NCBI GenBank assembly: GCA_016705365.1
Contig: JADIYI010000008.1
Span: forward strand, 559,787-623,786
Length of the DNA: 64,000 nt
Direction of reading: 5' to 3'
Source of the DNA: Gammaproteobacteria bacterium
Lineage (GTDB): Bacteria > Pseudomonadota > Gammaproteobacteria > Pseudomonadales > UBA5518
Part shown: piece by piece, positions 1-15,634 of the stretch
Layout of the letters: every line of letters begins with the position of its first letter
Numbering within the stretch: position 1 is the stretch's first letter
Made by a program: the position numbers and the translations under genes
Notes under the pieces: model-generated
Told to the model about the DNA's origin: nothing
What the model saw: the letters and a program-made list of their open reading frames with translations, nothing else
The model's database searches: none

Positions 1-51
1 ATTTCCAATGCGCTCGGCGGCAACCCCTACGCCGTGCAACCGCGCCGCTAA
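1..51 (+). CDS. 3' end of an unidentified CDS (partial, runs off window)
   Basis: Frame 1 is open from the window edge to TAA at 49-51 (...ISNALGGNPYAVQPRR*). Too short to assign. Confidence 0.3.
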   Translation: MSNALGGNPYAVQPRR

Positions 52-114: not shown

Positions 115-2853
115 ATGAGTGGAACCGGCATGATTTCCGATGGCTTTTCCATCCCGGATGCGCGCGCCGACCATTGGGCCCAGGCAGCGATAGTCGGTCG
201 TGCCTGGGCTGCGGCCGTGGCACGTGGCGAGGACGCCGGGAAACTCTGCGATGCCGCGCGCAGCGCGCTGGCGGAAATCGTCACGCTGGAGGATTTCTTT
301 GCGTTTCCCGGGCTGCGTCTCATGCAGACTCTTCAGGAGCGGCTGCAGGGCGCCGATGCCGGTGGATTTGCCGCGCTGGCCCAGCGTGTCAACGAAGGCC
401 TTGCCTCGGGTGCCTATCGCCATGATGCCGTACTGTGGGAGCCGGGCGAAGAGTCCGAGGTCACCCTGGCGGAATTTCTGCCGCCATCGTTCGATCACGA
501 GGACAGTCACCGCCCCTATTTCGAGGTATTGATCGTCGCCGCGGCCGACACCTCGCATTTCGAGCACAACCGCCGGGAACTCAGGCGCCTGCGCCGCGCC
601 GATGATCCGTTCATCTACGAAGTGCTGCAAGCGGGCAGTTTCGAGGACGCGATCCTCGCGACCCTGGCGAATCCCGACCTGCAGGCGGTCGTGATCGGCG
701 ACGGTTTCGGGTTCCGTTCGAGTCGCGACGCTCCCGGCTTGCGTGAGGCCCTGGCACGCACCAATCCATTCGATCCCGCGGCTCTCGATGTGCGCGACTA
801 CGGGCTCAAGCTGGCCTCGACGCTGAAAAGCCTGCGTCCGGAACTGGATATCTATTTTCTCACCGAGCGCGGGCCGGAACTGCTCGCCGCGCAACCGGAA
901 GCCGAGGCGATCCGGCGCATTTTCTACGGTCGCGAAGAAATCATGGAAATGCACCTGGCCCTGCTCGACGGGGTCGGCGAGCGTTACGAAACGCCGTATT
1001 TCGACAACCTCAAACGCTACAGCCGCAAACCCGTCGGCACTTTTCATGCGCTCCCCGTTGCCCGCGGCAAATCGATTTTCCGCTCGCACTGGATCCGTGA
1101 CATGGGCCAGTTCTACGGCATCAACCTGTTCATGGCCGAATCGTCCGCCACCACCGGCGGACTCGACAGCCTGCTCGAGCCGACCGGCAACATCAAGCGC
1201 GCGCAGGAACTGGCGGCGCGCGCTTTCGGTGCCGAGCACGCCTATTTCGTCACCAACGGCACCTCGACCTCGAACAAGATCGTGCTGCAGGCGCTGCTCG
1301 CCCCCGGCGATATCGTGCTGATCGATCGCAATTGCCACAAGTCGCACCATTACGCCATGGTGCTCTCCGGCGCGCAGCCACTGTATCTCGAGGCCTATCC
1401 GATGACGGCCTACTCGATGTACGGAGCCGTGCCGCTGCGCGCCATCAAGCAGGCCCTGCTGGCATTGAAAGCCGAAGGCAAGCTCGACCGCGTGCGCATG
1501 GTGGACCTGACCAACTGCACCTTCGACGGCCACATGTACAATCCGCGGCTGGTGATGGAGCAGTGTCTGGCGATCAAGCCCGATCTGATTTTCGTGTGGG
1601 ACGAGGCCTGGTTCGGCTTCGCCCGTTTCTCGCCTTTCCATCGCCTGCGTACCGGGATGTTCGCGGCCGCCGCACTCGGACAGCGTTATGCCAGCGCTGC
1701 CTACCGGGAGGAATATGCGGCGTTTCGCGCCGAGGCCGGTGAACTCGACCCGGCGGACCCGCGGCTGCTCGACATGCACCTGCTGCCGGATCCGGATCTG
1801 GTGCGCATCCGCGTCTATGGCACCCAGTCGACCCACAAGTCGATGTCCGCGCTGCGCCAGGGTTCGATGATCCTGGTACACGATCAGGACTTCGCGCAGG
1901 TGCACGGCGCGTTCGAGGAAGCGTTCTTCACGCATACCTCGACCTCTCCGAACCTGCAGATCATTGCCTCGCTCGATCTGGCGCGCCGGCAGATGGAACT
2001 CGAAGGCTACGGCCTGGTGTCGCGCTCGACCGATCTCGCGTTGCGCATCCGCCGCCAGGTCAATGGCAACCCGCAGATCGCGCAATACTTTCGCGTGCTC
2101 AGCCCGGAGGAGATGGTGCCCGCCGCGCATCGCGCATCGGGCATCCGCGACTACGGCCCGCCGCACGGCAACTGGCAACAGATGGCGAGCGCCTGGAATC
2201 ACGACGAGATTGCACTCGATCCGACCCGCCTGACCCTGGTTTGCGGCACGGCCGGCTACGATGGCACCGCGTTCAAGGGCTTGCTGGCCGAGCGCTATGA
2301 CATCCAGCTCAACAAGACCTCGCGCAACAGCATCCTGCTGCAGACGAATATCAACAACACGCGCAGCGATGTAGCGCATATCGTGCGCGTGCTGGCCGAA
2401 ATCGCCCGCGATATCGACAAGCAACTGCGCCGTGGCGGCGCGGCCGCGCGGGCAGAATTCGCGGCAAGAGTAAAAGCACTGATGGAAGACGTGCCGGACC
2501 TGCCGAACTTCAGCAGTTTCCATGATGCGTTTCGCGAGGATCCGGGCAGCGCGACCACCGAGGGTCATATGCGCGAGGCTTTCTACAGCGCCTATCGCGC
2601 CGACCAGTGCGAGTATCTGGCGGTGAATTCGCCGGAAATGGACCGCCGTCTGGAGCAGGGGCCGCAGGTCATCGCCGCCGATTTCGTGATTCCCTATCCA
2701 CCCGGATTTCCGATCATGGTGCCCGGGCAGGTGATCACGGCCGATACCATCACCTTCATGCGCGAGCTGGATGTCAAGGAAATCCACGGCTACCACGCCG
2801 CCCAGGGACTGCGCATACTCAAACCGGAAGTACTCGCGGCGCGCAAGCGCTGA
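115..2853 (+). CDS. PLP-dependent Orn/Lys/Arg decarboxylase family protein with extra N-terminal region
   Basis: Long ORF. AGGAG at 104-108 favours ATG 115 over TTG 109. Major-domain motifs FHALPVARGKS, YFVTNGTSTSNK and the PLP-lysine motif GTQSTHKSMSAL are present. A CheY-like wing segment is visible (YFEVLIVAA...AVVIGDGF). G/C-dominated third codon positions. Confidence 0.9.
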   Translation: MSGTGMISDGFSIPDARADHWAQAAIVGRAWAAAVARGEDAGKLCDAARSALAEIVTLEDFFAFPGLRLMQTLQERLQGADAGGFAALAQRVNEGLASGAYRHDAVLWEPGEESEVTLAEFLPPSFDHEDSHRPYFEVLIVAAADTSHFEHNRRELRRLRRADDPFIYEVLQAGSFEDAILATLANPDLQAVVIGDGFGFRSSRDAPGLREALARTNPFDPAALDVRDYGLKLASTLKSLRPELDIYFLTERGPELLAAQPEAEAIRRIFYGREEIMEMHLALLDGVGERYETPYFDNLKRYSRKPVGTFHALPVARGKSIFRSHWIRDMGQFYGINLFMAESSATTGGLDSLLEPTGNIKRAQELAARAFGAEHAYFVTNGTSTSNKIVLQALLAPGDIVLIDRNCHKSHHYAMVLSGAQPLYLEAYPMTAYSMYGAVPLRAIKQALLALKAEGKLDRVRMVDLTNCTFDGHMYNPRLVMEQCLAIKPDLIFVWDEAWFGFARFSPFHRLRTGMFAAAALGQRYASAAYREEYAAFRAEAGELDPADPRLLDMHLLPDPDLVRIRVYGTQSTHKSMSALRQGSMILVHDQDFAQVHGAFEEAFFTHTSTSPNLQIIASLDLARRQMELEGYGLVSRSTDLALRIRRQVNGNPQIAQYFRVLSPEEMVPAAHRASGIRDYGPPHGNWQQMASAWNHDEIALDPTRLTLVCGTAGYDGTAFKGLLAERYDIQLNKTSRNSILLQTNINNTRSDVAHIVRVLAEIARDIDKQLRRGGAAARAEFAARVKALMEDVPDLPNFSSFHDAFREDPGSATTEGHMREAFYSAYRADQCEYLAVNSPEMDRRLEQGPQVIAADFVIPYPPGFPIMVPGQVITADTITFMRELDVKEIHGYHAAQGLRILKPEVLAARKR

Positions 2854-2888
2854 CGGGTAGTTGGCATCGCAGGCGGGAGACACAATCA

Positions 2889-4583
2889 ATGTGGCAGTGG
2901 TTCGCGGATACCTTGCGGAGCAATCCCGAGATCGCGATATTCCTCACCCTCGGACTTGGCTTCTGGGCGGGGAAATTCAAGTTCGGTTCGTTCAGCCTGG
3001 GAGTCGTGACCAGTACCCTGCTCGCGGGTGTGCTCGTTGGCCAGCTCGGCATCACGATCTCTGCCCACGTCAAATCCACGTTCTTTCTGATGTTCCTGTT
3101 CGCGGTGGGATATGGCGTCGGACCGCAGTTTTTCCGTGGTCTGAAGGGTGACGGTGTTCCGCAGGTATTGTTCGCGCTGATGCAGTGCGTGGCGGTGCTG
3201 CTTACCGCGGCAGGCGTCGGCTATCTGCTCGGCTACGACGCCGGCGGCACGGCTGGCCTGCTGGCCGGTGCCAGCACCATCTCCGCGGTACTCGGCGTCG
3301 CCACCGACAGCATCAACCAGCTCGCGCTCGACGCCTCCGGGAAGAAGGCGATGCTCGATGCGATGCCGGTTGCCTACGCGGTGACCTACCTGTTCGGCAC
3401 CGCCGGGTCGGCGTGGCTTCTCGCCACCCTCGGGCCGAAGATCCTCGGCGTGGATATCGCCGAGGAGTGCCGCAAGTACGAGGCCGAGATGGGCGGTGCG
3501 CTGGCCGACGATCCCGACCGTCTTTCCGGTTACACGACATTCGTGTTGCGTGCTTACCGGCTCACCGACCCGAGCTGGGTCGGGCGCACGGTCGCCGAAT
3601 TCGAGGCCAGCTTCGTCGGCCAGAGAGTGTTCGTCGAGCGTCTGCGCCAGGACGGTGAACTGCTCGATCCGGCTCCCGAGCTGGTGCTGCGACAGGACGC
3701 GATCATCGCCATCGCCGGGCGGCGAGAGGTCGTGCTCGAGCGCGCCCTGCAGCTTGGCGTCGAAGTCGATGACCGCGAGTTGCTCGACCTCGAGATCGAG
3801 CGGCTCGACGTCGTGATCACGCGCAAGGAGGTTGCCGGCCTGTCGCTGCAGGAACTCGCGACCGGCGGGCTCGGTGACAACCTGCGCGGTGTGTTCTTGC
3901 GCAAGATCCTGCGCACCGGGGTCGAGATGCCGATCACCATGGGCTTCAGGCTGGAGCGTGGCGACACGCTCACGCTGGTGGGTCCGCGTACCCACGTCGA
4001 TCGCGTGGTGCCGCAGATGGGCTATGCCGATCGTCCCACCGACGAGACCGATATGGTCGTGATGGGTGCGGGTATCGTGATCGGTGCGCTGATCGGCGCG
4101 CTGACATTCCGCCTCGGCGGCGTGCCTCTCAGCCTGAGTACCAGTGGCGGTGCGCTGATCGCGGGGCTGGTATGCGGCTGGTTGCGTTCCGTGGATCGTA
4201 CCTATGGCCGCATCCCCGGCCCGGCTTTGTGGGTGTTCAACAATATCGGGTTGAATGTTTTCATTGCAGTGGTGGGCATCAGCGCCGGCCCGGGGTTCGT
4301 CGCCGGACTCAAGGCGCAGGGTCTCGAGCTGTTCCTCGCCGGTATCGTGGTGACCACCGTACCCCTGATCATCGGCCTGCTCGCCGGGAAATACCTGTTT
4401 CGCATGAAGGCGCCGATCATCCTCGGCGCCTGTGCCGGCGCACGCACCACCACGGCCGCGCTCGGCGCAATCGAAGAGGAGGCGAAGAGCAAGGTTCCGG
4501 CCCTTGGCTATACCGTGACCTATGCAGTCGGCAATACGCTGCTGACCGTGTGGGGCGTGGCAATCGTATTGCTGATGAGCTGA
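2889..4583 (+). CDS. AspT/YidE/YbjL (AAEx, aspartate:alanine exchanger) family transporter with two central RCK_C/TrkA-C domains
   Basis: ATG at 2889 (MWQWFADTLRSNPEIAIFLTLGLGFWAGKFKFGSFSLG...) lies 35 nt after the decarboxylase stop. The ORF-track start at 2607 overlaps the decarboxylase and is rejected. Hydrophobic halves flank two soluble RCK_C-like segments. About 564 aa, as for YidE/YbjL. Confidence 0.85.
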   Translation: MWQWFADTLRSNPEIAIFLTLGLGFWAGKFKFGSFSLGVVTSTLLAGVLVGQLGITISAHVKSTFFLMFLFAVGYGVGPQFFRGLKGDGVPQVLFALMQCVAVLLTAAGVGYLLGYDAGGTAGLLAGASTISAVLGVATDSINQLALDASGKKAMLDAMPVAYAVTYLFGTAGSAWLLATLGPKILGVDIAEECRKYEAEMGGALADDPDRLSGYTTFVLRAYRLTDPSWVGRTVAEFEASFVGQRVFVERLRQDGELLDPAPELVLRQDAIIAIAGRREVVLERALQLGVEVDDRELLDLEIERLDVVITRKEVAGLSLQELATGGLGDNLRGVFLRKILRTGVEMPITMGFRLERGDTLTLVGPRTHVDRVVPQMGYADRPTDETDMVVMGAGIVIGALIGALTFRLGGVPLSLSTSGGALIAGLVCGWLRSVDRTYGRIPGPALWVFNNIGLNVFIAVVGISAGPGFVAGLKAQGLELFLAGIVVTTVPLIIGLLAGKYLFRMKAPIILGACAGARTTTAALGAIEEEAKSKVPALGYTVTYAVGNTLLTVWGVAIVLLMS

Positions 4584-4637
4584 GCCGGAGGCGAGAGTTG
4601 CAACTGATTTTTTGATCGTAAATCCAGGAGTCCCAAC

Positions 4638-6023
4638 ATGAAAGAACTGATATTGCCGCATCGCGGAACGGTTTCCCGCCCCCACGCAGCCCTCGCGGTG
4701 ATGTTGTCGGTGCTTGCGCTGCCATTGTCGGCCCACGCCGACGATGTCGCGGACCTGAGACGCGAGCTCGAGGCCTCGCGCGCCGCGATCGAGCGCCTGG
4801 AACAGCGCATCCTCGATCTCGAATCCGCGCGCACGGCTCCCGCCGCCGCAGCGATGGCTCCGGCCGTTGCCACGGCGCCGGCAGTAGCGCCGGCAGCCGC
4901 GACGCAGCCCTCCAACGATGCCAAACTCGATGTCTACGGTTTCGTGCAGCTCGACACGATCTACGATTTCAATCAGTCCGACCCCAACTGGAAGGACGCG
5001 CTGCGCGTCTCGAAGATCCCGATCAACTGCCCCGACGACGCCGGCTGCGGCAAGGATGGCGAGACCGTTTTCGGGGTGCGCCAGACACGCATCGGCGTGC
5101 GCGGCAAGATCCCGACGGAAATTGGCGAGCTGAACACCAAGCTCGAATTCGAACTGTTCGGCGTAGGTGCCGACGAAGGGAAGACCACGCCGAGGCTGCG
5201 CCATGCCTGGGCGGAGCTCGGCGAATTCGGCGCCGGCCAGACCTGGTCGCTGTTCATGGATCCGGACGTGTTCCCCAACACCATCGAGTACTGGGGTCCG
5301 ACCGGCATGATTTTCGTGCGTAACCCGCAGCTGCGCTGGACGCCGTACCGCACGGCAGGCCAGCAGTTTGCGATCGCCCTGGAATCGCCGTCCTCGGCAC
5401 TGGACACCGGCAAGATCTCCGACATCGACCCCGACGATAACCCGCTGTCGATCCAGAGCGAGAACAACCTGCCCGACCTGACCGCGCAGTGGCGCTCGAG
5501 CGGTGACTGGGGCCATGTGCAACTGGCCGGCATCGTGCGCTCGGTGGGATTCGAGACCGCCAACACCGCCAATGGCAATCCCTCGGGCGAGGAAACCGGC
5601 TGGGGCTTGAATGGCAGCGCCAGCATTGCGGTCACCGGACGCGACAAGCTGCACCTGCAGCTCGCCTATGGCGAGGGCATCGCGAGTTATATCAACGATG
5701 GCGGCAGCGACCTTGCACCGAACGACGATCTCACGGGTGCGGAACTGCTTCCGTTGCTGGGCGCACTTGCCTATTACGACCACTACTGGAGCGAGCGCTG
5801 GAGCAGCAGCATCGGCTGGAGCATCGCGGAACAGGACACCACCCGAGGACAGTACGGCAGCGCCTACGAAAGCGCGCAGTATGGCAACCTGAACCTGTTG
5901 TACTATCCCGCGCCGGGGATCATGATCGGTGGCGAGCTGATGTATGGCGAACTGGAGCTGAAGGACGGCAGCACGGCCGATGATACGCGCATGCAGATGT
6001 CCTTCAAGTACAGCTTCGACTGA
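4638..6023 (+). CDS. DcaP-like trimeric outer-membrane porin (signal peptide, N-terminal coiled coil, beta-barrel)
   Basis: AGGAG at 4626-4630. Signal peptide ends ...LSAHA/DD. Heptad-like DVADLRRELEASRAAIERLEQRILDLESA, then an Ala/Pro linker, then alternating aromatic beta-strand pattern (KLDVYGFVQLDTIYDF ... MQMSFKYSFD). Confidence 0.6.
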   Translation: MKELILPHRGTVSRPHAALAVMLSVLALPLSAHADDVADLRRELEASRAAIERLEQRILDLESARTAPAAAAMAPAVATAPAVAPAAATQPSNDAKLDVYGFVQLDTIYDFNQSDPNWKDALRVSKIPINCPDDAGCGKDGETVFGVRQTRIGVRGKIPTEIGELNTKLEFELFGVGADEGKTTPRLRHAWAELGEFGAGQTWSLFMDPDVFPNTIEYWGPTGMIFVRNPQLRWTPYRTAGQQFAIALESPSSALDTGKISDIDPDDNPLSIQSENNLPDLTAQWRSSGDWGHVQLAGIVRSVGFETANTANGNPSGEETGWGLNGSASIAVTGRDKLHLQLAYGEGIASYINDGGSDLAPNDDLTGAELLPLLGALAYYDHYWSERWSSSIGWSIAEQDTTRGQYGSAYESAQYGNLNLLYYPAPGIMIGGELMYGELELKDGSTADDTRMQMSFKYSFD

Positions 6024-6031
6024 GGGTGCGG

Positions 6032-6060
6032 GGCTGATGCCGGCACGCCGGCAATCAGCC
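6032..6060 (+). terminator. Imperfect hairpin after the porin gene
   Basis: GGCTGATGCCGG / CCGGCAATCAGCC pair with one bulge, 9 nt after the stop codon. No U-tract. Confidence 0.3.
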
Positions 6061-6151
6061 TGATATCGGCATCGCCGTGCGATCGCGCTCCTTTGTGCAT
6101 GTTCGCGTCGCAGCCACCCGGTTTGGTAACTCCCGGTAATCGATGGGGTAA

Positions 6152-7816
6152 GTGAAAGTGCAATCAGGATCGTTGGTGATCGATTTTCTGCGGACCAACC
6201 CCGTCTTTACCCTGTTCATCATTCTTGGCGGTGGTTATCTGCTGGGGCGGTTGCGCATCGGGCCGGTTTCGCTCGGGCCCGTCGCCGGCGCGCTGCTCGT
6301 GTCCCTGGTGTTCGGGCAATTCGGGTTCAAGGTCAGCGAAGGTGCCCAGTCCGTAGGTTTCGCGCTGTTTATTTTCGCGGTTGGCTACCAGGCGGGGCCG
6401 CGCTTTTTCGAAGTGCTGAAAACCCAGGGGCTGCAGTACCTGGCGCTGGCACTGTTCGTGGCCGGTACCGGCGGAGCCATTGCGATCGCGGCCGGCCGGC
6501 TGCTCGATCTGCCTTTTGGTGGCACGGCGGGACTGCTCGCCGGCGCGATGACCACTACCCCCACGCTCGCTGCGGCGCAGGACGCGGTCCGTTCGGGCAT
6601 CGTGGCGCTGCCCGAAGGGGCAAGCGCGGACAGCGTGCTCGCCACTATCGCCTCGAGCTATGCGATCACCTATATCGTGGGTCTGCTTGGCATCATTGCG
6701 ACGATACGCATGCTGCCGCGCGTGGTCGGCGTCGACCTGGCCGCGGAAGCGGCAAAGATGGAAGAAGCGGGCAAACCGCAGCGTGGCGGTCAATTGCAGG
6801 CACGCGCCTATCGTGTCACCCGCCCCGAGGCATGCGAGCCCACGGTCAGGATGATTCGCGCCCGCTTCTGGGACGCGATGTCGGTCACGAAGTTGTTGCG
6901 CAACGGCGAATGGGTGCGTCTCGGCGACGATGAGCACCTGCAGCTTGGCGACGAGCTCCACGCTTATGGTGACTCGAGCTTTTTCCGCGGTGGAGTCGAA
7001 GAACTGGGGGAAGAAATTCCCGTTTCGCCCGAAATCGACATGTCTGCGGACTATACCCACGTCGTCATCGCGCGCCGTGGCGCGGTCGGCAAGACGATCG
7101 CGGAACTCAATCTCGCGCGCAACCACGGACTCGTCGTCACCGAGGTGCGGCGTGATGGTGTTCGGCTTCCGCTCAGCAGTCACCTGCGTCTGCAGCGCAG
7201 CGATGTGCTGAGCGTGGCAGGACCCAAGCCGGGCTTGCGAGAGATGCAGGAAGTCCTCGGCCCGGTGGAGTCGGGCATTGCCGAGACTGATATGGCGACG
7301 TTTGCGTTTGGCATTGCGCTCGGTGCCCTGATCGGCGTTTTCGCCATCAATGTGGGCGGGGTGCCGATCGGACTGGGCATGGCCGGGGGCTTGCTCGGCT
7401 CCGGGATTTTCGTGGGCTGGTTCAATGCCATTCGGCCGACCTTCGGCAGGTTTCCCGAGGCCGCGCGGTGGATACTGATGGAATTCGGGTTGATGATCTT
7501 TATCGTTGGCGTCGGCTTGCAGGCCGGTGGCCAGATCGTCGCGACTTTTGCAAAAGCGGGCCCGGCGCTGGTCCTGGCCGCGATCCTGGTGGTCGCGGGA
7601 CCAGCCCTGCTCGGTTATGTCTTTGGTCGCAAGGTGTTGCGCCTGCATCCGGTGCTGCTGCTTGGTGCGCTCACCGGTGCGATGACCAGCGCGGCCGCCA
7701 TGGCGCTGGTCAATCGCGAGGCAAAGAGCGCGATACCGGCACTTGGTTATACCGGAACCTACGCCTTCGCCAACGTGATCCTCACGGTCGCCGGCACGCT
7801 GATCATGTTCGTATGA
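6152..7816 (+). CDS. Second AspT/YidE/YbjL (AAEx) family transporter paralogue with RCK_C domains
   Basis: 554-aa ORF with a GTG start (6152 or 6158; uncertain). Same architecture as 2889-4583 (LGGGYLLGRLRIGPVSLGPVAG...; FAVGYQAGPRFF; C-terminal GYTGTYAFANVILTVAG mirrors GYTVTYAVGNTLLTVWG). Confidence 0.85.
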   Translation: MKVQSGSLVIDFLRTNPVFTLFIILGGGYLLGRLRIGPVSLGPVAGALLVSLVFGQFGFKVSEGAQSVGFALFIFAVGYQAGPRFFEVLKTQGLQYLALALFVAGTGGAIAIAAGRLLDLPFGGTAGLLAGAMTTTPTLAAAQDAVRSGIVALPEGASADSVLATIASSYAITYIVGLLGIIATIRMLPRVVGVDLAAEAAKMEEAGKPQRGGQLQARAYRVTRPEACEPTVRMIRARFWDAMSVTKLLRNGEWVRLGDDEHLQLGDELHAYGDSSFFRGGVEELGEEIPVSPEIDMSADYTHVVIARRGAVGKTIAELNLARNHGLVVTEVRRDGVRLPLSSHLRLQRSDVLSVAGPKPGLREMQEVLGPVESGIAETDMATFAFGIALGALIGVFAINVGGVPIGLGMAGGLLGSGIFVGWFNAIRPTFGRFPEAARWILMEFGLMIFIVGVGLQAGGQIVATFAKAGPALVLAAILVVAGPALLGYVFGRKVLRLHPVLLLGALTGAMTSAAAMALVNREAKSAIPALGYTGTYAFANVILTVAGTLIMFV

Positions 7817-7864
7817 GGGGCTGCGGCAACTGATCCGCGGCCATGCCGTACCGTGGATGGCACA

Positions 7865-8932
7865 TCAGTTACCGGCTGCTCTTATCTCGCTTGCCAGTTG
7901 CACCAGCTCGCCGGGCGACACGAAACTCTGGGCACGCAGCTCGCCGCCGTACTTGTGCACGACCTCCCTGAAATGGCGCTCCCAGACGTTTTCGAACAAA
8001 ACGATGATCGCGGTGTGATCCGGAAGCAACTTCGCTGCTATCGAATGAATGTCATCCACCGTCAGACCGAAATCGCCCGCTGCGGCAGCACGGATTGCAG
8101 ATTCGATGTGGTCGGCCGTGGACTCCGCGGCACCTGCCCGGCGGCTCGCGATCATGGCCAGCAGCGCGTTGATTTCCGGTGCGTCGTCGGCGTTCTCGAG
8201 CCGGCCGCCCTCCATCGCCGAAATTTTGCCGTTGGCATCCTTGCTCACCAGCACGAACGCATCCGGCCTGACTTCGCTGCTGGCCCAGAGCTCGCGCAGT
8301 TCGTCCATGAAATCGAACGGCAACAGCACGCCCGGAAAGTGCGTCACCATCAGGTTGAGCGAGCCCAGTTTGCCGAAGTCCATGCGCGGCAGCGCGGCGG
8401 GTGTCGTCGCTACTGCTGCCGGGCGTTCGCCGCGAATGAAGATGCCGAGATGATCGAGCACCGGGTTTGCCGCGGCCTCGCCACCCATGATCTGGTGCCA
8501 GTGCCGTTCGAATGTCTCGCGGGGAACAAAGGCCTTGCCCATGCGCAGGTAGGGATCCTGGAAATACACATGCTCATCGTCCACGCCGAGCACGACGATG
8601 TAATGGCCGTTGTCCCAGTCTTCCTCCGGGCGCAACGCGGAGCTGCGCTGACTGCGCCAGACCTGGGCCAGCGCGATCATCGGGTGACCAAAACGCCGGA
8701 CCTCGTCGAGGCTGAGGTTATCGCGCAGTTCCGCCTCGAGGCCCAGCGCCCGCACGCCGCGCACGATGTTCTCGGGATAGGAGCCGACGTCGGACGACGT
8801 GCCGATCAGCTTCATGATCGCGGTCTCGTCGAGCTCGCGCCCCCAATAGCCCAGTACCGCCTGCAGCGCCGATGCGCCGCAGGAATACTCGGTGATCTGG
8901 CGCGTTCTGGACAGCAGCTGGAAATTGCTCAT
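7865..8932 (-). CDS. C39-like (papain-fold) cysteine peptidase domain fused to a C-terminal domain of unknown function
   Basis: N-terminal triad-like motifs: EYSCGASALQAVLGYWG (Cys), WDNGHYIVVLGVDD (His), YFQDP (Asp). The C-terminal ~150 aa (LNLMVTHFPG...FVLVSKDANGKISAMEGG...AIIVLFENVWERHF) recalls a DUF6325-type domain. That recollection is unverified. Confidence 0.7.
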   Translation of the reverse strand: MSNFQLLSRTRQITEYSCGASALQAVLGYWGRELDETAIMKLIGTSSDVGSYPENIVRGVRALGLEAELRDNLSLDEVRRFGHPMIALAQVWRSQRSSALRPEEDWDNGHYIVVLGVDDEHVYFQDPYLRMGKAFVPRETFERHWHQIMGGEAAANPVLDHLGIFIRGERPAAVATTPAALPRMDFGKLGSLNLMVTHFPGVLLPFDFMDELRELWASSEVRPDAFVLVSKDANGKISAMEGGRLENADDAPEINALLAMIASRRAGAAESTADHIESAIRAAAAGDFGLTVDDIHSIAAKLLPDHTAIIVLFENVWERHFREVVHKYGGELRAQSFVSPGELVQLASEIRAAGN

Positions 8933-8977
8933 GATTCACGCTCCCGGACAATCAATTTGAGAATATAGGCAAAGGCC

Positions 8978-10195
8978 ATGAGTGAAAATACCCTGCATGC
9001 AGCGAACGACGGCGACTCGCCGCAGCTCGTTCCGGAGCTCGACAATTTTTCGCTCGTGCTCGGCGGGCCGCTGTACCAGCTGTTCCGCAGGCTGCGCCTC
9101 GAGGACCAGGCCGAGGATTATCTGAGGAGGCGTATTTTCGTCCTCGCCGGGATCGCCTGGATACCGCTGCTGCTGCTGTGCCTGGCAGAGGGAACGCTCT
9201 TTGGCGGGGTGGCAATCCCCTTCATCGGCGACATCGAGACCCATGTACGGTTCTTGCTGGCATTGCCGCTCCTGGTTGTTGCGGAGCTCGTCGTGCATCT
9301 GCGCATGCGTGGTATCGTGGCCCAGTTTCTCGAGCGAAGGCTCGTCTCGGGGCACACGCTGCGGCAATTTCGTGCCGCTCTCCTGTCGGCGATGGAGCTG
9401 CGCAATTCGACGCTCGCCGAGCTGTTGCTGCTGGCGATCATTGTCCCGGTCACCTACTACCTGCGGGCGGATTTTCTCGCTCCGGAGGTTCCAACCTGGT
9501 ACGCGCGGCTGGTCGAGGGCGGCAATATCACGCTTGCGGGATACTGGTACTGGTGGGTCAGCAATCCCCTGCTGCAATTCCTGGTACTGAGGTGGTACTT
9601 TCGCCTCTTCATCTGGGCGCGCTTCCTGTGGCGGGTTTCGCGAATCGAGCTTGCGCTGCTGCCAACGCACCCGGATCGTGCGGCGGGTCTCGGGTTCCTC
9701 GGTGAGAGCGCGTACGCACAGGCTCCGCTGCTTGCGGCCCACGGCGCCGCGGTTGCCGGACTCATCGCCAACCACATTTTTCATGAAGGGGCCTCGCTGG
9801 CGGCATTCAAGCTCGAGATCGTCCTGCTGGTCCTGATCCTGCTGTTCATGGTGCTGCTGCCGCTCTGCGTCTTTGCGCCCGCAATCCTCGCCGCAAAGCG
9901 ACAAGGGCTGCGCGAATACGGCCGCTTTGCCAGTCACTACATGCGCGAATTCGATCGCCGCTGGTTGCGCAGTTCGGACCACGACGGCGAGAGCATGCTC
10001 GGTTCGGGCGATATGCAGTCGCTGGCCGACCTCGGCACCGCGTTCTGCGTGATCCGGGAAATCAAGGCAGTACCCTTCGGGCGCGATACGCTGTGGATGC
10101 TGCTCGTTGCGACGCTGGCCCCCATCGCCCCTCTGGTTTTCACGATGATTCCTCTGGAGGAACTGCTCAACCGCCTGATCGGGGCGGTATTCTGA
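8978..10195 (+). CDS. Polytopic inner-membrane protein, unknown function
   Basis: 405-aa ORF with several long hydrophobic segments (IFVLAGIAWIPLLLLCLA, FLLALPLLVVAELVV, LEIVLLVLILLFMVLLPLCVFAPAILA, LWMLLVATLAPIAPLVF). Starts 45 bp from the divergent 8932 start. Coding-type codon bias. Confidence 0.6.
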   Translation: MSENTLHAANDGDSPQLVPELDNFSLVLGGPLYQLFRRLRLEDQAEDYLRRRIFVLAGIAWIPLLLLCLAEGTLFGGVAIPFIGDIETHVRFLLALPLLVVAELVVHLRMRGIVAQFLERRLVSGHTLRQFRAALLSAMELRNSTLAELLLLAIIVPVTYYLRADFLAPEVPTWYARLVEGGNITLAGYWYWWVSNPLLQFLVLRWYFRLFIWARFLWRVSRIELALLPTHPDRAAGLGFLGESAYAQAPLLAAHGAAVAGLIANHIFHEGASLAAFKLEIVLLVLILLFMVLLPLCVFAPAILAAKRQGLREYGRFASHYMREFDRRWLRSSDHDGESMLGSGDMQSLADLGTAFCVIREIKAVPFGRDTLWMLLVATLAPIAPLVFTMIPLEELLNRLIGAVF

Positions 10196-11032: not shown

Positions 11033-11868
11033 GGTTGTTCTCCCTCGAGCGATTCGGCCGCCGGCGGCAGTGCGACCATGGAACCCATGCGGGCCAGGAA
11101 CTGGATTTTTCGCGCGTCCTTCGGCGGTTTGAAAGCGAACACTGCATCGACGGTGTCAGGCGCGAGATTCCAATCGACAAACTGGGCGCGAAACTGGGGC
11201 TGGCCCTTGTAATCCCGGTAAGTCAGCACGATGCGAAGCGGCAACGGCTGCGGGCCGTCGCTTACCCAGATCTGGAAATCCACGGTATCGCCGCGCGCAC
11301 TCAGATGATGCGCGGGGGCGCCGAAAATCGTCGTTGATTCGACATAATCGACCGTCTTTACGCGGCGCTCGAATGCGCGTGGCAGGCTTTCGGTCAGCAG
11401 CAGTGCAAGCGGCAGACGCATCTTCAGATCGCCAACGAAGGTTTTCAGCGCCGCGTCGATGTCTCCCGCCTGCTTGCTCTGTGCATAGACGTTCTCGTCA
11501 CCGCTGAACGCCGAGAGAGTCTTGCCGTCGAAGAGCAGCTGGTTTGTCTCGCCGTTGCTTTCCTCGACCTCGACGCGCAGATGGTCGGGCCGGCGAACCG
11601 TGATCCTGCGGATTGCGGCAAATTCGAGCTTTTCCCCCGTATCCTGCAAGGAGTCGTATGCGCTCAAGACGCGCATGCTGTAGCGCGGGGTCTTTGCCAT
11701 GAACTGCGCCATGCCCATGAGGATGGCGCGGGCATCCGGGGCGCTCGCCGTCGGCTCGGCGCCGGAAGCGACCGGCGCGTCCTCGGCGTAGCATTTGCCG
11801 CCGACCGTCGCCGCCAGCACGAGGGATGCGCAGAAAGAAAAAAACCTGTTCGATCGTTTGCGGTTCAT
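11029..11868 (-). CDS. DUF2092-type periplasmic protein (LolA-like fold)
   Basis: ATG at 11868 (MNRKRSNRFFSFCASLVLAATVGG, signal peptide). The ORF-track start at 11925 is rejected. Body (AILMGMAQFMAKTPRYSMRV...RITVRRPDHLRVEVE...LLFDGKTLS) resembles the DUF2092/LolA-like family as I recall it. Confidence 0.65.
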   Translation of the reverse strand: MNRKRSNRFFSFCASLVLAATVGGKCYAEDAPVASGAEPTASAPDARAILMGMAQFMAKTPRYSMRVLSAYDSLQDTGEKLEFAAIRRITVRRPDHLRVEVEESNGETNQLLFDGKTLSAFSGDENVYAQSKQAGDIDAALKTFVGDLKMRLPLALLLTESLPRAFERRVKTVDYVESTTIFGAPAHHLSARGDTVDFQIWVSDGPQPLPLRIVLTYRDYKGQPQFRAQFVDWNLAPDTVDAVFAFKPPKDARKIQFLARMGSMVALPPAAESLEGEQP

Positions 11869-11902
11869 CGGGTTCGACCTCGGGAAAATGTTATCTGGCA
11901 CT

Positions 11903-13582
11903 TCATGAAACGGCCTTGCGCGCAACGCTCGCCACCGCGGCTTCCACGGTCGCGAACATCCCGGCCGATCCCAGTGTCTCGGGGAGACTGGTACGGCGCA
12001 CGGCGCTCAGCGAAGTCGGGTTCAGCGCGGCCAGCACAAGGTTGATACCCCGAGCACGGAATCCGGCAGCCATTTCCACCAGTCCTTTCAGCGCGGTGTA
12101 TTCGAAATCCGGGATCGCGCCGCAGTCGAGAATCAGCGCCGTGGGCATTGCCGATTCCACCAGTTCGCGCAGCTTCTCGCCGACGTTCTGCGCATTGGCA
12201 AAGTAGACGCGGCCCTCGATACGCGCGATCAGGAGTCCTGGCGTCGATTCGTCCTCCCGGTGCTCCGCAGAGCGGGGGCGAAACACGTTGGTGCCCGGCT
12301 TGCGGCGCAGTTCGTAGACCATGGGGTTGTTTGCCTGATACATCAGGCTCAGCATCGACAGCAGCACGGCAACCAGGATTCCCTTCAAGGTCCCGAGAAA
12401 TATCACGCCGAGAAAGGCCGCGATGGCCCAGCGGAACTCGACTGCGCGGACTTTCAGGATTGCCCGCATCTCGCCGGGATCGATCAGGCCCACCGAATAG
12501 GCGATCACGACCGCAGCCAGCGTGGCATGCGGCATCTTGCCTATGATCGGAGCAAGAAAGAGCATCGTCGCCAGCGCGGTCAGGGCCGCGACCATCCCGG
12601 CAACCTGGCTTCTGGCGCCAGCCAGGGTGTTTATGGCGGTCTGCGATGTCCCGCCACCTCCCGGCATCGCGCCAAAAAAGCCGCCCACCACATTGCCCAT
12701 CCCGGTTGCCACCAGCTCCTGATCCGATACCACCCGGGCTTCACCCTCGCGGCGGAACGCGCGGGCCGCCGCGATGGTCTCGGTGAAGCTCATCAGCGCA
12801 ATGCCGAGCGCCGCCGGCCACAGCATCAGCAGCAGACTCCGGTCCGGGCTCGAGAACGCTGGCAGCCCGCCAGGAACGGTCCCGACGACACTGACGCCAG
12901 CGGCCTCCAGCCCCAGCAGTGACGAGGCGGCAATCGCCCCGCCAATGGCAATCACCGGCGCCGGCGCGCGCGGCAATACTTTGGCGACCAGCACCAGGCA
13001 TAACAGGGTGGCGACGGCAACCAGCAGCGTCGTCATCGAACTGTGAGGCAGCCCGGATGCGATCGCGAACAGGTCGCGCAGGAATCCGCTCTTGTCGATA
13101 TGCACGCCGAGTACCTTGGGCAACTGGTCGACGACGATGACGCAACCGATGCCGGCCTTGAAGCCGGTGAGCACCGGGTCGGAGATGAAGCTGGCGAGGA
13201 AACCGAGCCGCAGCACGCGCGCTGCCAGCAGCATCAGGCCAACCAGCAGCGAGAGTGTTGCGGTTGCCGTCAGCAGTGGGATATCCGGCTGCGCGGCGGC
13301 CACCTCCCCGAGCGCGGCGCCCGAAAGGATGGCGATGGTGGTGGTCGTGGTCACGCTCAGGGTCGCAGAGGTACCCAGCGGCACGTAGACGAGCGGCGGG
13401 ATGAACGCCGTGTACAGGCCCACCTGAAGCGGGAGGCCGGCGATCGCCGCATAGGCCATGGCCTTGGGAATCACCACGGCTGCCGCGGTCAGGCCCGCGA
13501 CGATGTCAGCTCCCAGCCAGCCCCGTCGGTAACGTGCGATCCAGCCGATCGCGGGGACGAGGCTCCTCGAGGTGCTGTTCAC
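11903..13582 (-). CDS. SulP-family anion transporter with C-terminal STAS domain
   Basis: GTG start preceded by GGGAGA. N-terminal WLGADIVAGLTAAAVVIPKAMAYAAIAGLPLQVGLYTAF is the SulP signature region. C-terminal STAS-like segment (LLIARIEGRVYFANAQNV...ILDCGAIPDFEYTALKGL). Confidence 0.9.
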   Translation of the reverse strand: MNSTSRSLVPAIGWIARYRRGWLGADIVAGLTAAAVVIPKAMAYAAIAGLPLQVGLYTAFIPPLVYVPLGTSATLSVTTTTTIAILSGAALGEVAAAQPDIPLLTATATLSLLVGLMLLAARVLRLGFLASFISDPVLTGFKAGIGCVIVVDQLPKVLGVHIDKSGFLRDLFAIASGLPHSSMTTLLVAVATLLCLVLVAKVLPRAPAPVIAIGGAIAASSLLGLEAAGVSVVGTVPGGLPAFSSPDRSLLLMLWPAALGIALMSFTETIAAARAFRREGEARVVSDQELVATGMGNVVGGFFGAMPGGGGTSQTAINTLAGARSQVAGMVAALTALATMLFLAPIIGKMPHATLAAVVIAYSVGLIDPGEMRAILKVRAVEFRWAIAAFLGVIFLGTLKGILVAVLLSMLSLMYQANNPMVYELRRKPGTNVFRPRSAEHREDESTPGLLIARIEGRVYFANAQNVGEKLRELVESAMPTALILDCGAIPDFEYTALKGLVEMAAGFRARGINLVLAALNPTSLSAVRRTSLPETLGSAGMFATVEAAVASVARKAVS

Positions 13583-13677
13583 TGTCGATCATCTCCCTTG
13601 AGCCTGCGTGTCGCGCGCAACGCACAGAACAAAACTCGTGTGCCGGGTCCCGGTGGCGGCACCGGCGGTTGCGCTAA

Positions 13678-14187
13678 TCAATATTTGACTGAGTAGCCCC
13701 GCGCTTCTATGCAGGCACCGTAAGCACTCTTGAACCCATCGAGCTGCGCCGCAGCTTGCTGCTGGGCCGATTGCTGCGCCTGCTGTGCCTGCTGTTCTTT
13801 CTGCTGGCGGTCGGTCGCACCGCCGCGCATGACGCCGAGGGTCGCGCCGATCGCGGCGCCCTTGCCCCCGTCATCGCCGGCGACCTCCCCGATGATCGCG
13901 CCACCGACAGCTCCGCGAGCCGCGCCACGCAGCCGCGACCCGCTTGCCTGCTGCTGAGCTGGAGCCGCCGCCGTCGCCGGCGGTGGATTGAGCGGATCGT
14001 AACCGGTCTGGCCCTTGGCCCAGCCGAAGCATTCGTAGTCGTCCTTGCCTTGTTGCTCCGCTGACTGGTCCTTCGCCGGGTAGATGTAAACCCCGACCGA
14101 CGAGGCGAGCGTATCCGCGTGCGTGCCTGCCGAAGCGACCGTGGCCAGCAGGGCCATCGCGGCAAAAGAAACAAATCGTGTATTCAT
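13678..14187 (-). CDS. Secreted glycine-zipper protein with Gln-rich tail
   Basis: ATG at 14187 (MNTRFVSFAAMALLATVASAG, signal peptide). The ORF-track start at 14469 is rejected. Glycine zipper GAARGAVGGAIIGEVAGDDGGKGAAIGATLG. Q-rich QQKEQQAQQAQQSAQQQ. Confidence 0.6.
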   Translation of the reverse strand: MNTRFVSFAAMALLATVASAGTHADTLASSVGVYIYPAKDQSAEQQGKDDYECFGWAKGQTGYDPLNPPPATAAAPAQQQASGSRLRGAARGAVGGAIIGEVAGDDGGKGAAIGATLGVMRGGATDRQQKEQQAQQAQQSAQQQAAAQLDGFKSAYGACIEARGYSVKY

Positions 14188-14288
14188 CAACAGCTCCTTG
14201 GGAGCATTGGGCAGCATCAGGGCAAATGCACCGGATATGACTTTTGCAACTGCACGCTTGGGTATCATGACGCGCTGGTGCGGAATCA

Positions 14289-15125
14289 CTAAAACGCTTC
14301 GGGAATCACCTTGGCGCCGGCCGGAAGCGAGGACTTTGTCCTGGCCACCTTGCGTTTTGGCAGTCTTACCTTGTCCGCTTTGACGGACTTGTACGGAATG
14401 CAGCTCAACAGGTGCGTGATCAGATTCAGACGCAGTCGCTTCTTGTCGTCGGAATTGGCCACGTACCATGGCGCGGATGTAGTGTCGGTAGCCTGCAGCA
14501 TTTCGTTGCGCGCCCTGGTGTAATCATCCCAGCGGGTGTAGGACTTGAGGTCCATCGGTGTCAGCTTCCAGATCTTGCGTTCGTCGTCGATGCGATCCAT
14601 CAGCCGGCGTGTCTGCTCGTCGGGACTGACTTCCAGCCAGTACTTGATGAGGATGATGCCCGACTGAACCATCGCCATTTCGACCAGCGGCACGCCAAGC
14701 AGGAAATGCTGCGCCTGCTCGTCCGTGCAAAACCCCATCACGCGCTCCACACCGGCACGGTTGTACCAGCTGCGGTCGAATATCACGACCTCTCCTGCCG
14801 AGGGAAAATGCTGCACGTATCGCTGCAGGTACATCTGGCTCTTCTCGCGCTCGGTTGGTGCAGGGAGTGCCACCACCCGGAATACCCTCGGGCTCACGCG
14901 CTCGGTGATCGCCTTGATGGTCCCGCCCTTGCCGGCACCGTCGCGGCCCTCGAACACGATGCACACCTTGGCGCCGGTTTTCTGCGCCCACTGTTGCACC
15001 TTCACCAGCTCGCCATGCAGCCGCTCGAGCTCCTTCTCGTACTCCTTGCGCTTCAGTTTTCCGTCCGGTTTCGCTTCAGCGCCCTTGGCGCGGCCGGGCT
15101 TGCCGCGATTGCCTTTCGTGGTCAT
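14289..15125 (-). CDS. ppk2: Polyphosphate kinase 2 (PPK2 family)
   Basis: GGAGG 6 nt upstream of ATG 15125. PPK2 Walker-A-type motif FEGRDGAGKGGTI, plus DRSWYNRAGVERVMGF and KIWKLTPMDL. Confidence 0.9.
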   Translation of the reverse strand: MTTKGNRGKPGRAKGAEAKPDGKLKRKEYEKELERLHGELVKVQQWAQKTGAKVCIVFEGRDGAGKGGTIKAITERVSPRVFRVVALPAPTEREKSQMYLQRYVQHFPSAGEVVIFDRSWYNRAGVERVMGFCTDEQAQHFLLGVPLVEMAMVQSGIILIKYWLEVSPDEQTRRLMDRIDDERKIWKLTPMDLKSYTRWDDYTRARNEMLQATDTTSAPWYVANSDDKKRLRLNLITHLLSCIPYKSVKADKVRLPKRKVARTKSSLPAGAKVIPEAF

Positions 15126-15144
15126 GATTCCTCCAGTGATCGAC

Positions 15145-15164
15145 GATTTTCCGCATGGAAAATC
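15145..15164. promoter_or_regulatory. Perfect palindrome GATTTTCC-GCAT-GGAAAATC in the ppk2 upstream region (candidate operator)
   Basis: 8-bp arms with a 4-bp spacer, 20 nt upstream of the ppk2 ATG, in the divergent intergenic region. Confidence 0.3.
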
Positions 15165-15355
15165 CGCTGCCGCGTTGTTTCGGGTCAAAACAGCCGCACC
15201 AAGCAGTTTTACGAGCGGTTTGCACAGGGTGCATTTCTAGCGGACTTCGATCGGCAATGCAATCGGAGATTGACAAGCTGCGACGAATGACGATTGAATC
15301 GAATTTTGCCGCGCAGGATCCACCAAGCAGCGGACCGGTATGGAGATCAGTTTTT

Positions 15356-15634
15356 ATGGCCGACCACGCTGATGACGGAGGCACCATCGTCGCTCTTCTC
15401 GATCGCTTCAGGTTGCAGCGCCTTCCCGCGGCGCTCGCGTTGAAGGAAAAGGTGGGCCGCGGTGAAAAGCTGAGCGACGCCGATCTCGAGTTTCTCGATC
15501 GCGTGCTCGAAGACATGCGCGATGGACAGCCGCTGGTGTCCCGCCATCCCGAGCTTGCGGCGCTTCTGGGCAAGGTTTCCGGCCTTTACAAGGAAATCAC
15601 CGACGCTGCGTTGGCAAACGAACAGGCCGGATGA
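15356..15634 (+). CDS. Small helical hypothetical protein (92 aa; start uncertain, alternatives 15257/15287)
   Basis: GGAGA 9 nt upstream of ATG 15356. Noticeably more T-ending codons than its neighbours. No family recognised. Confidence 0.45.
   Translation: MADHADDGGTIVALLDRFRLQRLPAALALKEKVGRGEKLSDADLEFLDRVLEDMRDGQPLVSRHPELAALLGKVSGLYKEITDAALANEQAG

Follow-up and report, generated by a model that had tools for sequence, protein, structure and literature searches.

The 64,000-nucleotide stretch analyzed here (hereafter the window), which comes from a contig of a gammaproteobacterium of the UBA5518 lineage (JADIYI010000008.1, positions 559,787 to 623,786), begins with four plus-strand genes at 115-7816 that encode a decarboxylase, two putative carriers and an outer-membrane porin. 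According to our open reading frame calls, the first of these (115-2853) specifies a long-form pyridoxal phosphate (PLP)-dependent decarboxylase of the Orn/Lys/Arg fold, 912 amino acids in length and designated DC, which carries the Pfam domain OKR_DC_1, is of the same type as Rv2531c of Mycobacterium tuberculosis and is a predicted L-glutamate decarboxylase. It is followed at 2889-4583 by the gene for AAEx1 (564 amino acids), an AspT-type antiporter from the AAEx (aspartate:alanine exchanger) family with two Asp-Al_Ex domains, a TrkA_C domain and a match to TIGR03802, then at 4638-6023 by a DcaP-like porin gene (461 amino acids; signal peptide, N-terminal coiled coil and beta-barrel), and at 6176-7816 by the gene for AAEx2 (546 amino acids), a second AAEx paralog that has the same domains and belongs to a separate clade. 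The intergenic distances are 35, 54 and 128 bp, the last becoming 152 bp with the GTG start at 6176, which has an AGGA motif 6 nt upstream and is the start chosen by public gene calls; the alternative GTG at 6152 would give a protein of 554 amino acids. An earlier note on this DNA had reported four same-strand genes 35-130 bp apart, in the order decarboxylase, AAEx, coiled-coil/beta-barrel porin and second AAEx, with no regulator among them, and in all of these respects, including the domain content found with Pfam, we arrive at the same description.

Since the window begins only 114 bp ahead of DC, the upstream part of the cluster falls outside it. The source contig (L001) matches the window with 0 mismatches in 12 kb, window position 1 being L001 position 9887, and the DC protein is present on 23 public contigs. 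Directly upstream of DC and on the same strand, L001 carries asdA (5989-7680), encoding a bifunctional aspartate transaminase/aspartate 4-decarboxylase, ansB (7755-8837), encoding a type II asparaginase, and glsA (8915-9937), encoding a 340-amino acid glutaminase A, of which only the 3′ end is left in the window (1-51, plus strand). These genes are separated from each other and from DC by 74, 77 and 63 bp, so that the gene order reads asdA-ansB-glsA-DC-aaex1-dcaP-like-aaex2. The asdA gene is preceded by a 297-bp AT-richer gap (L001 5692-5988), beyond which lies an unrelated acyl-CoA operon; at the other end, a gene on the opposite strand (7865-8932), which encodes a C39-peptidase-like protein, stops the same-strand run at 7816. 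It is highly probable that the cluster comprises seven same-strand genes, of which the four in the window are the 3′ part, and the seven genes may be co-transcribed. No sigma-70-like promoter or Rfam element was seen in the gap 5′ of asdA. A hairpin-like sequence in the gap, A6GCT...AGCT8, may serve to terminate the acyl-CoA operon ahead of it.

AsdA passes both cut-offs for aspartate 4-decarboxylases, with 733 bits against NF006755 (cut-off 321) and 723 bits against TIGR03801 (cut-off 435.1). A canonical AsdA is thus encoded three genes upstream of DC, and the suggestion of the earlier note that such a partner was missing or had been replaced reflects the position of the window edge. The asparaginase scores 436.6 bits against TIGR00520 (cut-off 314.3) and the glutaminase 430.8 bits against NF009020 (cut-off 395). 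Both amidohydrolases start with a typical Sec signal peptide, which ends in AVAAVASA before AP in the asparaginase and in AIGAGAQA before AE in the glutaminase (N-terminus MRVPMISRLFVLALALAIGAGAQA, followed by AEQ), and both are therefore predicted to be exported. The E. coli enzyme GlsA/YbaS is cytoplasmic. Sec-type signal peptides are also found on both amidohydrolases of four related loci (L049, L087, L088 and L089), which are described below. The GlsA of L088 (8958-9977) may in addition carry a lipobox, VIGC; the glsA gene of L049 is located at about 8860-9881, and that of L089 (9122-9939) is split into three called fragments, either by an assembly or sequencing error in this metagenome-assembled genome (MAG) or by gene decay. 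The GlsA proteins encoded 4 kb from DC in Arthrobacter and Paenarthrobacter (L074, L080 and L084) have no signal peptide.

The porin matches the Pfam family DcaP (PF19577) with 62 bits (cut-off 27) and Porin_2 with 24.7 bits, and aligns over residues 75-460 with DcaP of Acinetobacter baumannii (PDB 6EUS; E value 5e-10). Its N-terminus has a signal peptide ending in AALAVMLSVLALPLSAHA, followed by DDVADLRRELEASRAAIERLEQRILDLES and by a heptad-like segment (DVADLRRELEASRAAIERLEQRILDLES). Anionic and dicarboxylate solutes reportedly pass through DcaP, according to a structure paper of 2019.

Of the two carriers, AAEx1 reaches 658.7 bits against TIGR03802, above the AspT equivalog cut-off of 546.95, and has AspT of Tetragenococcus halophilus as its PDB match (E value 2.6e-54). 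AAEx2, with 413.1 bits, stays under the same cut-off. We take TIGR03802 to be defined as the carrier that is encoded together with aspartate 4-decarboxylase; AsdA is indeed encoded in the cluster of AAEx1, and adjoins AAEx1 orthologs in L049, L088 and L089. The residues that bind L-Asp in T. halophilus AspT are T130, S132, Y167, L431, T496 and S498 (PMC12462496). AAEx1 keeps T130, S132, Y167 and T496, has Thr for S498, and has Arg rather than Asp before T496, so that its HP2 motif reads GARTTT as opposed to GADTLS in T. halophilus AspT; one could speculate that this Arg is related to the substrate. The corresponding motifs of AAEx2 are AMTTTPT (HP1) and GAMTSA (HP2).

Family and active site of the long-form decarboxylase

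The earlier note had described DC as a basic-amino-acid decarboxylase wired to anion exchangers and, finding that cationic and dicarboxylate substrates would conflict, had supposed that the substrate might be unusual. Were DC a lysine, ornithine or arginine decarboxylase for polyamine synthesis or acid resistance, it would indeed stand oddly beside such carriers. Pfam could be read in this way, since DC matches OKR_DC_1 (240.8 bits) and, weakly, OKR_DC_1_C, and homologs are publicly annotated as 'arginine decarboxylase', a label carried by thousands of metagenomic sequences. However, no Pfam match was obtained in DC for the wing domain OKR_DC_1_N, and DC fails all NCBIfam models of the Ldc, Adi and Spe type by a factor of 5-8 (score/cut-off: LdcC 199/968, CadA 176/1056, AdiA 160/1167, SpeC 153/794, SpeF 153/1310). 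It does not cluster with SpeC/LdcC-type enzymes, two pocket arginines that are not in LdcI are represented in DC by R581 and K721, and the cluster contains no APC-type cadB, adiC or potE gene. Together with the properties of its closest characterized relative, which is inactive on the basic amino acids (see below), these scores led us to reject a basic substrate, which we consider highly unlikely for DC.

That relative, and the closest one in the PDB, is Rv2531c of M. tuberculosis (9N0N/9N0O/9N0P; E value 2e-224, against 4e-55 for the runner-up). BLASTP aligns the two proteins with 695 bits and 49% identity over 758 amino acids when only residues 132-902 of Rv2531c are used, which corresponds to an alignment score of the EFI type of about 203, by our own approximation of -log10(2^-695 x 912 x 947). 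This exceeds 185, the published network threshold at which Arg, Lys and Orn enzymes separate (PMC13506015). The AlphaFold (AF2) model of DC, with a mean pLDDT of 71.5, has helices at 13-36, 42-59, 67-78 and 82-98 (pLDDT about 90) and, from residue 135 onward, an alpha/beta domain, that is, a predicted N-terminal four-helix bundle and a receiver-like domain. A Foldseek search with this model returned 9n0o at the top (TM 0.89, E value 1.5e-64, 905 aligned columns), and AdiA, LdcI and Odc at E values of about 1e-27 and a TM of about 0.55. By homology, DC is a four-domain long-form enzyme of the Rv2531c type and not of the Lys/Arg/Orn type.

Rv2531c converts L-glutamate to gamma-aminobutyrate (GABA) in vitro, requires Mg2+ and is inactive on Lys, Orn and Arg; in vivo it is the source of essentially all GABA labeling from glutamate, and its deletion abolishes the labeling (PMC13506015). 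Besides the PLP lysine K570, the active-site residues singled out in that study were H405, K406, R576, T606, R718 and N731, with R576 as the modeled ligand of the gamma-carboxylate (PMC13506015). Residues H408, K409, K575, R581, T610 and N733 of DC are the counterparts of Rv2531c H405, K406, K570, R576, T606 and N731, and DC K721 replaces R718, a conservative Arg-to-Lys change. The six identical residues are invariant in 81/81 family members where covered. Position 718 is R or K, with Lys throughout the clade of enzymes linked to AAEx genes and also in some unlinked members. A search for clade-specific differences in the active site was discarded, the one variable position being R718/K, which does not follow the clades strictly. 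From the homology, and from the position of glsA next to DC, we consider that DC probably acts on glutamate. With an enzyme family that takes an acidic amino acid, the conflict between cationic and dicarboxylate substrates disappears, and of the 'unusual substrate' of the earlier note what is left is, most simply, glutamate.

Conservation of the decarboxylase-carrier neighborhood

A scan of one genome per species yielded 80 DC loci with 10-kb flanks, which were searched with the seven cluster proteins; the counts are based on those loci in which DC is flanked by 3 kb or more on either side, divided at 54% DC identity to the window. A same-strand AAEx gene is located within 500 bp of DC in 31 of the 38 loci with at least 54% identity, and any AAEx gene within 10 kb in 35. 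Two or more AAEx genes are present in 19 of these loci, asdA in 18 and a dcaP-like gene in 8, whereas none of these features, by either measure of AAEx proximity, occurs in any of the 37 loci below 54%. The first group comprises Alpha-, Beta- and Gammaproteobacteria, Acidobacteriota, a Chthoniobacterales MAG (Verrucomicrobiota) and Methylomirabilis (Methylomirabilota), that is, four phyla. The second consists of Actinomycetota, among them Mycobacterium (the Rv2531c branch), of Delftia and Rhodoferax, of one MAG each from Flavobacteriales and Anaerolineales, and of a small number of further proteobacterial MAGs. The AAEx-linked DCs form one clade in a neighbor-joining tree. The idea of an envelope-spanning decarboxylation/antiport module, put forward in the earlier note from the window only, thereby gains support, the DC-AAEx pair and, in several lineages, a DcaP-like porin being co-conserved across phyla. 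DcaP-like genes adjoin DC in L049, L088, L012, L013, L017, L020 and L047.

The arrangement of the genes differs among loci. In L049, in the Nevskiales MAG L088 and in L089 the order is dcaP-glsA-DC-(x)-aaex1-asdA-ansB, with AAEx1 orthologs that are 73-79% identical and lie between DC and asdA; in the Haliea MAG L087 it is DC-aaex1 (broken)-aaex2-asdA-ansB, and in four Terriglobia loci (L012, L013, L017 and L020) either dcaP-DC-aaex-asdA or aaex-asdA-dcaP-DC. In the Haliea MAG the aaex1 ortholog (L087 12776-14248) is split over three frames, through an assembly or sequencing error or through decay, and in L088 a gene for a 915-amino acid GH63/MGH1-like glycoside hydrolase (12769-15516), without obvious link to the module, lies between DC and aaex1. 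Could the seven genes have come together by chance and be functionally unrelated? Neither a regulator nor a recognizable promoter, terminator or RNA element links them, as one would expect in that case. However, an adjacency rate of 31/38 against 0/37, the reappearance of the same six functions, rearranged, in L049, L088 and L089, and intergenic gaps of no more than 35-152 bp make chance juxtaposition extremely improbable.

Across the rearrangements in the closest relatives, glsA has been kept beside DC and ansB beside asdA, which is what the pairings Gln->Glu->GABA and Asn->Asp->Ala would predict. This bears on the possibility that the AAEx-linked DC clade uses another acidic substrate, such as aspartate (yielding beta-alanine), cysteine sulfinate or cysteate, and that the adjacent carrier exchanges the corresponding pair. 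The constant association of DC with AspT-type carriers, often together with AsdA, would fit such a view, as would the presence of Lys at position 718 throughout the clade (also in some unlinked members) and the fact that the sole characterized homolog is 49% identical and has a very weak affinity for glutamate. Yet it is a glutaminase, not a second asparaginase, that has stayed next to DC, there is no variation at R576, the modeled ligand of the gamma-carboxylate, or at the other residues of the pocket, and the pairwise score to Rv2531c lies above the network threshold, so that we regard a substrate other than glutamate as rather unlikely.

We also compared the carriers themselves, in a tree of 57 AAEx proteins from DC loci. 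Two main clades account for the carrier genes directly after DC, apart from a third, related type at a few loci. The members of clade A resemble AAEx1, exceed the TIGR03802 cut-off and show GARTTT as their HP2 motif; clade B, found in Lysobacter, Bradyrhizobium, Roseomonas and Methylomirabilis, scores below it (395 bits), has the HP2 motif GARSHSGP and occurs without AsdA. Clade A carriers stand beside DC without asdA within 10 kb in L025, L028, L031, L039 (Alcaligenes), L043 (Comamonas kerstersii) and L048 (Acetobacter), and clade B carriers do so in L007, L008, L021, L024, L029 and L030. Since clade A follows DC also where asdA is missing within 10 kb, the DC-AAEx pair is the conserved core, and AsdA a frequent addition. 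A rule of one carrier per decarboxylase was considered and does not hold, since clade A adjoins DC whether AsdA is present or not, and in the 10-kb flanks of L049, L088 and L089 the two decarboxylases have one AAEx gene in common.

The same data speak to a further alternative, in which two unrelated units lie side by side, namely an Asp:Ala system made up of asdA, ansB and AAEx1, and a cytoplasmic DC that feeds a GABA shunt without an antiporter, its GABA being catabolized. Rv2531c does feed the GABA shunt and has no neighboring transporter gene, as in all 37 loci of its branch; moreover, AAEx1 exceeds the AspT equivalog cut-off, and the AAEx gene lies between DC and asdA in many loci. Nevertheless, the adjacency of DC and AAEx persists in the six clade A and six clade B loci without asdA within 10 kb, the AAEx-linked DCs are a single clade, and no family resembling gabT or gabD figures among the recurrent neighbors in that part of their clusters which was annotated. 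On this evidence two independent units seem improbable, and there is a good probability that the AAEx carrier encoded beside DC is its functional partner.

The position of AAEx2 is different. Together with a Haliea homolog (L087, 73% identical) it forms a clade of its own, and it is not a dedicated partner of DC, because its homologs are also encoded next to an AAEx1-type gene, in tandem and with no DC (L093), alone (L091), or near a canonical pair of an OKR_DC decarboxylase and an APC permease. Another homolog lies near a glutaminase gene (L092), and one lies beside SulP and PPK2 genes, 7 kb from a DC-aaex pair (L090). The canonical pair is found in L091 (17863-21659), near a 64%-identical AAEx2 homolog, where a three-domain OKR decarboxylase with OKR_DC_1_N is encoded next to an APC permease (AA_permease); it represents the classical decarboxylase-APC pairing, and both architectures are thus present in related genomes.

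A possible two-decarboxylase antiport module

On balance we favor the view that the cluster encodes an envelope-spanning module with two decarboxylases, in which Asn->Asp->Ala and Gln->Glu->GABA pathways would be coupled to antiport. In such a module, the DcaP-like porin would admit small acidic and amide amino acids (Asn, Gln, Asp and Glu) through the outer membrane. In the periplasm, the type II asparaginase would convert Asn to Asp and NH3, and glutaminase A would convert Gln to Glu and NH3, the NH3 being freed outside the cytoplasm. The AAEx antiporters would bring in Asp(1-) and Glu(1-) and send out the neutral products Ala(0) and GABA(0), which in the cytoplasm would be formed, with release of CO2, from Asp by AsdA and from Glu by the long-form DC. 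Each cycle would use up one cytoplasmic proton and move net charge, and would thus generate proton-motive force and/or buffer pH, as do AspD-AspT and GadB-GadC with YbaS. Exchange by AspT is electrogenic, Asp1- for Ala0 (PMC9508256). Substrate pairs are not allotted here to individual AAEx carriers, and the direction of transport and the physiological role are presumed. Only tentatively do we suggest that AspT-type AAEx carriers are the missing Glu:GABA exchangers, or dual Asp/Glu:Ala/GABA exchangers, of a second glutamate decarboxylase (GAD) system.

Several observations weigh against this picture. Being invariant family-wide, the active-site residues offer no means of telling the AAEx-linked clade apart from that of Rv2531c. 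The K0.5 of Rv2531c for glutamate is about 509 mM and its kcat/K0.5 136 M-1 s-1, a very poor apparent affinity (PMC13506015), so that for some members of the family there may be a better substrate than glutamate. AAEx1, being above the AspT cut-off, could serve AsdA alone, and the homologs of AAEx2 in other genomes are loosely tied to DC. The adjacency of glsA is seen in gammaproteobacterial loci only, with glsA at a distance of 4 kb in some loci of the Arthrobacter group (Arthrobacter and Paenarthrobacter). Finally, a promoter and terminator scan of L001 5500-19000 gave counts equal to the shuffle expectation, with all plus-strand terminator-like sites being intragenic, and Rfam models had no match anywhere in the 22.7-kb locus at E values up to 0.1; the operon structure is therefore deduced from gene spacing.

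The closest known counterpart is the AspD/AsdA-AspT system of T. halophilus (TIGR03801 and TIGR03802), which likewise combines a canonical AsdA with an AAEx carrier passing the AspT cut-off and, through electrogenic exchange of precursor for product, would have its logic in common with the cluster; four AspT binding residues (T130, S132, Y167 and T496) are retained in AAEx1. What the cluster has in addition is another, non-homologous decarboxylase along with one more AAEx paralog, a pair of exported amidohydrolases and a porin of the outer membrane, and AAEx1 here adjoins the long-form DC, not AsdA, and differs in its HP2 motif, as noted above. With Rv2531c, the 'cloaked' glutamate decarboxylase (PMC13506015, PMC12329521), DC has in common the four domains, the PLP lysine and the pocket residues. 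DC differs in having K for R718 and in belonging to a separate clade, in which an AAEx gene nearly always follows; Rv2531c and the other loci under 54% identity lack neighbors of the AAEx, AsdA or DcaP kind, and Rv2531c acts in a cytoplasmic GABA shunt. The chemistry proposed for the glutamate branch, from Gln through Glu to GABA with antiport and proton consumption, is similar to that of the GadB-GadC system of E. coli with YbaS/GlsA (PMC12915299). However, neither component is homologous, the cluster having a DC of the Lys/Orn/Arg fold and an AAEx carrier instead of a GadB-type decarboxylase and an APC carrier, and its glutaminase is predicted to be exported rather than cytoplasmic. No domains of a GadB-type (group II) decarboxylase or an APC-type GadC were found in the seven genes or their flanks, and the resemblance is functional only. 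The CadA-CadB, AdiA-AdiC and SpeF-PotE systems have the OKR_DC_1 fold and the pairing of a decarboxylase with an antiporter in common with the cluster, but their enzymes are three-domain decamers that act on basic substrates and work with APC antiporters, and DC fails all of their NCBIfam cut-offs. As for the porin, it agrees with A. baumannii DcaP (6EUS) in its Pfam family, its barrel-wide match and its signal peptide and N-terminal coiled coil, but the similarity is low, and its setting is a cluster for amino acid decarboxylation and not for dicarboxylate catabolism.

Each part of the cluster is thus of a known kind, and what would be new is a glutamate branch made of two components that are not homologous to GadB-GadC, joined to an AsdA branch, exported amidases and a porin. 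The activity of the long-form glutamate decarboxylase was published in August 2026, as that of a cytoplasmic GABA-shunt enzyme (PMC13506015), and transporters, operons or gene neighborhoods go unmentioned both there and in the cryo-EM paper (PMC13506015, PMC12329521). No paper connecting AspT or an alanine antiporter with GABA or a glutamate decarboxylase was found in the full-text literature, a body of text that leaves most subscription journals outside its scope. Within the same limits, the conserved DC-AAEx pairing across phyla appears to be undescribed, and the earlier note, too, had been unable to match the combination to a described system. The pairing would give the long-form GAD family a second context, that of decarboxylation-driven antiport, and Glu:GABA, if true, would add to the substrate pairs of the AAEx family, for which the characterized activities in the searched literature are Asp:Ala exchange and succinate export only, a glutamate exporter being mentioned as a family member in one abstract (PMC9527358). 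If AspT-type carriers do exchange Glu for GABA, a second GAD system, with both components non-homologous to GadB-GadC, would be common among the Proteobacteria, Acidobacteriota, Verrucomicrobiota and Methylomirabilota of soil and water, and some Gammaproteobacteria would have merged it with AsdA, with an asparaginase and a glutaminase that are exported, and with a porin of its own. The outcome would be a single module across the envelope, by which Asn and Gln are turned to account for energy or pH buffering. The module would also be a testable candidate in organisms that raise GABA at low pH without GadB/GadC. Castellaniella MT123, for instance, has elevated GABA at low pH without GadB/GadC or a known antiporter, and encodes an 'Arg/Lys/Orn decarboxylase' (PMC12915299). 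There would be consequences for annotation as well, given that AspT-type carriers are now automatically labeled aspartate:alanine antiporters, and DC homologs arginine decarboxylases.

Flanking genes and recurrent neighbors

The rest of the window consists of ordinary chromosomal genes, such as glyS, trkAH, rsmB, polA and cox. The minus-strand gene that follows the cluster (7865-8932) encodes a stand-alone C39-peptidase-like protein of 355 amino acids without ABC transporter domains. Back to back with it lies a plus-strand gene (8978-10195) for a 405-amino acid multi-pass membrane protein that has no match in Pfam or NCBIfam. This membrane protein recurs near DC only in L008 (40% identity) and L009 (54%), and with such sparse recurrence (2 loci) neither it nor the C39-like peptidase was retained as a part of the module.

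Within 7 kb of AAEx-linked DC genes, a LuxR-type response regulator is encoded in 17/46 loci, PPK2 in 15/46, and a histidine kinase with a periplasmic ABC_sub_bind-like domain in 11/46, although many of the loci concerned are from Bradyrhizobium and the counts are therefore phylogenetically redundant. Examples of these three families are found at L021 4588-5229, L027 5009-6871, L019 17139-18056, L088 2584-3483 and L089 113-1012. The recurrent response regulator and kinase may be the regulators that are missing from the cluster itself.

A tentative accessory part of the module is a SulP/STAS anion transporter encoded on the minus strand of the window at 11903-13582 (Pfam Sulfate_transp, 279 bits, plus a STAS domain). 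Orthologs that are 55-58% identical lie within 10 kb of DC in two gammaproteobacterial loci and one Terriglobia locus (L049 4951-6714, L089 5649-7340 and L012 1578-2771), and in L090 it is a SulP (11688-13409) and PPK2 pair that accompanies the AAEx2 homolog. A conceivable function of SulP is the transport of bicarbonate or dicarboxylates in connection with the decarboxylations. A SulP of lower similarity (30% identity) is encoded directly upstream of DC in the Bradyrhizobium loci L022 and L023, which lack AAEx.

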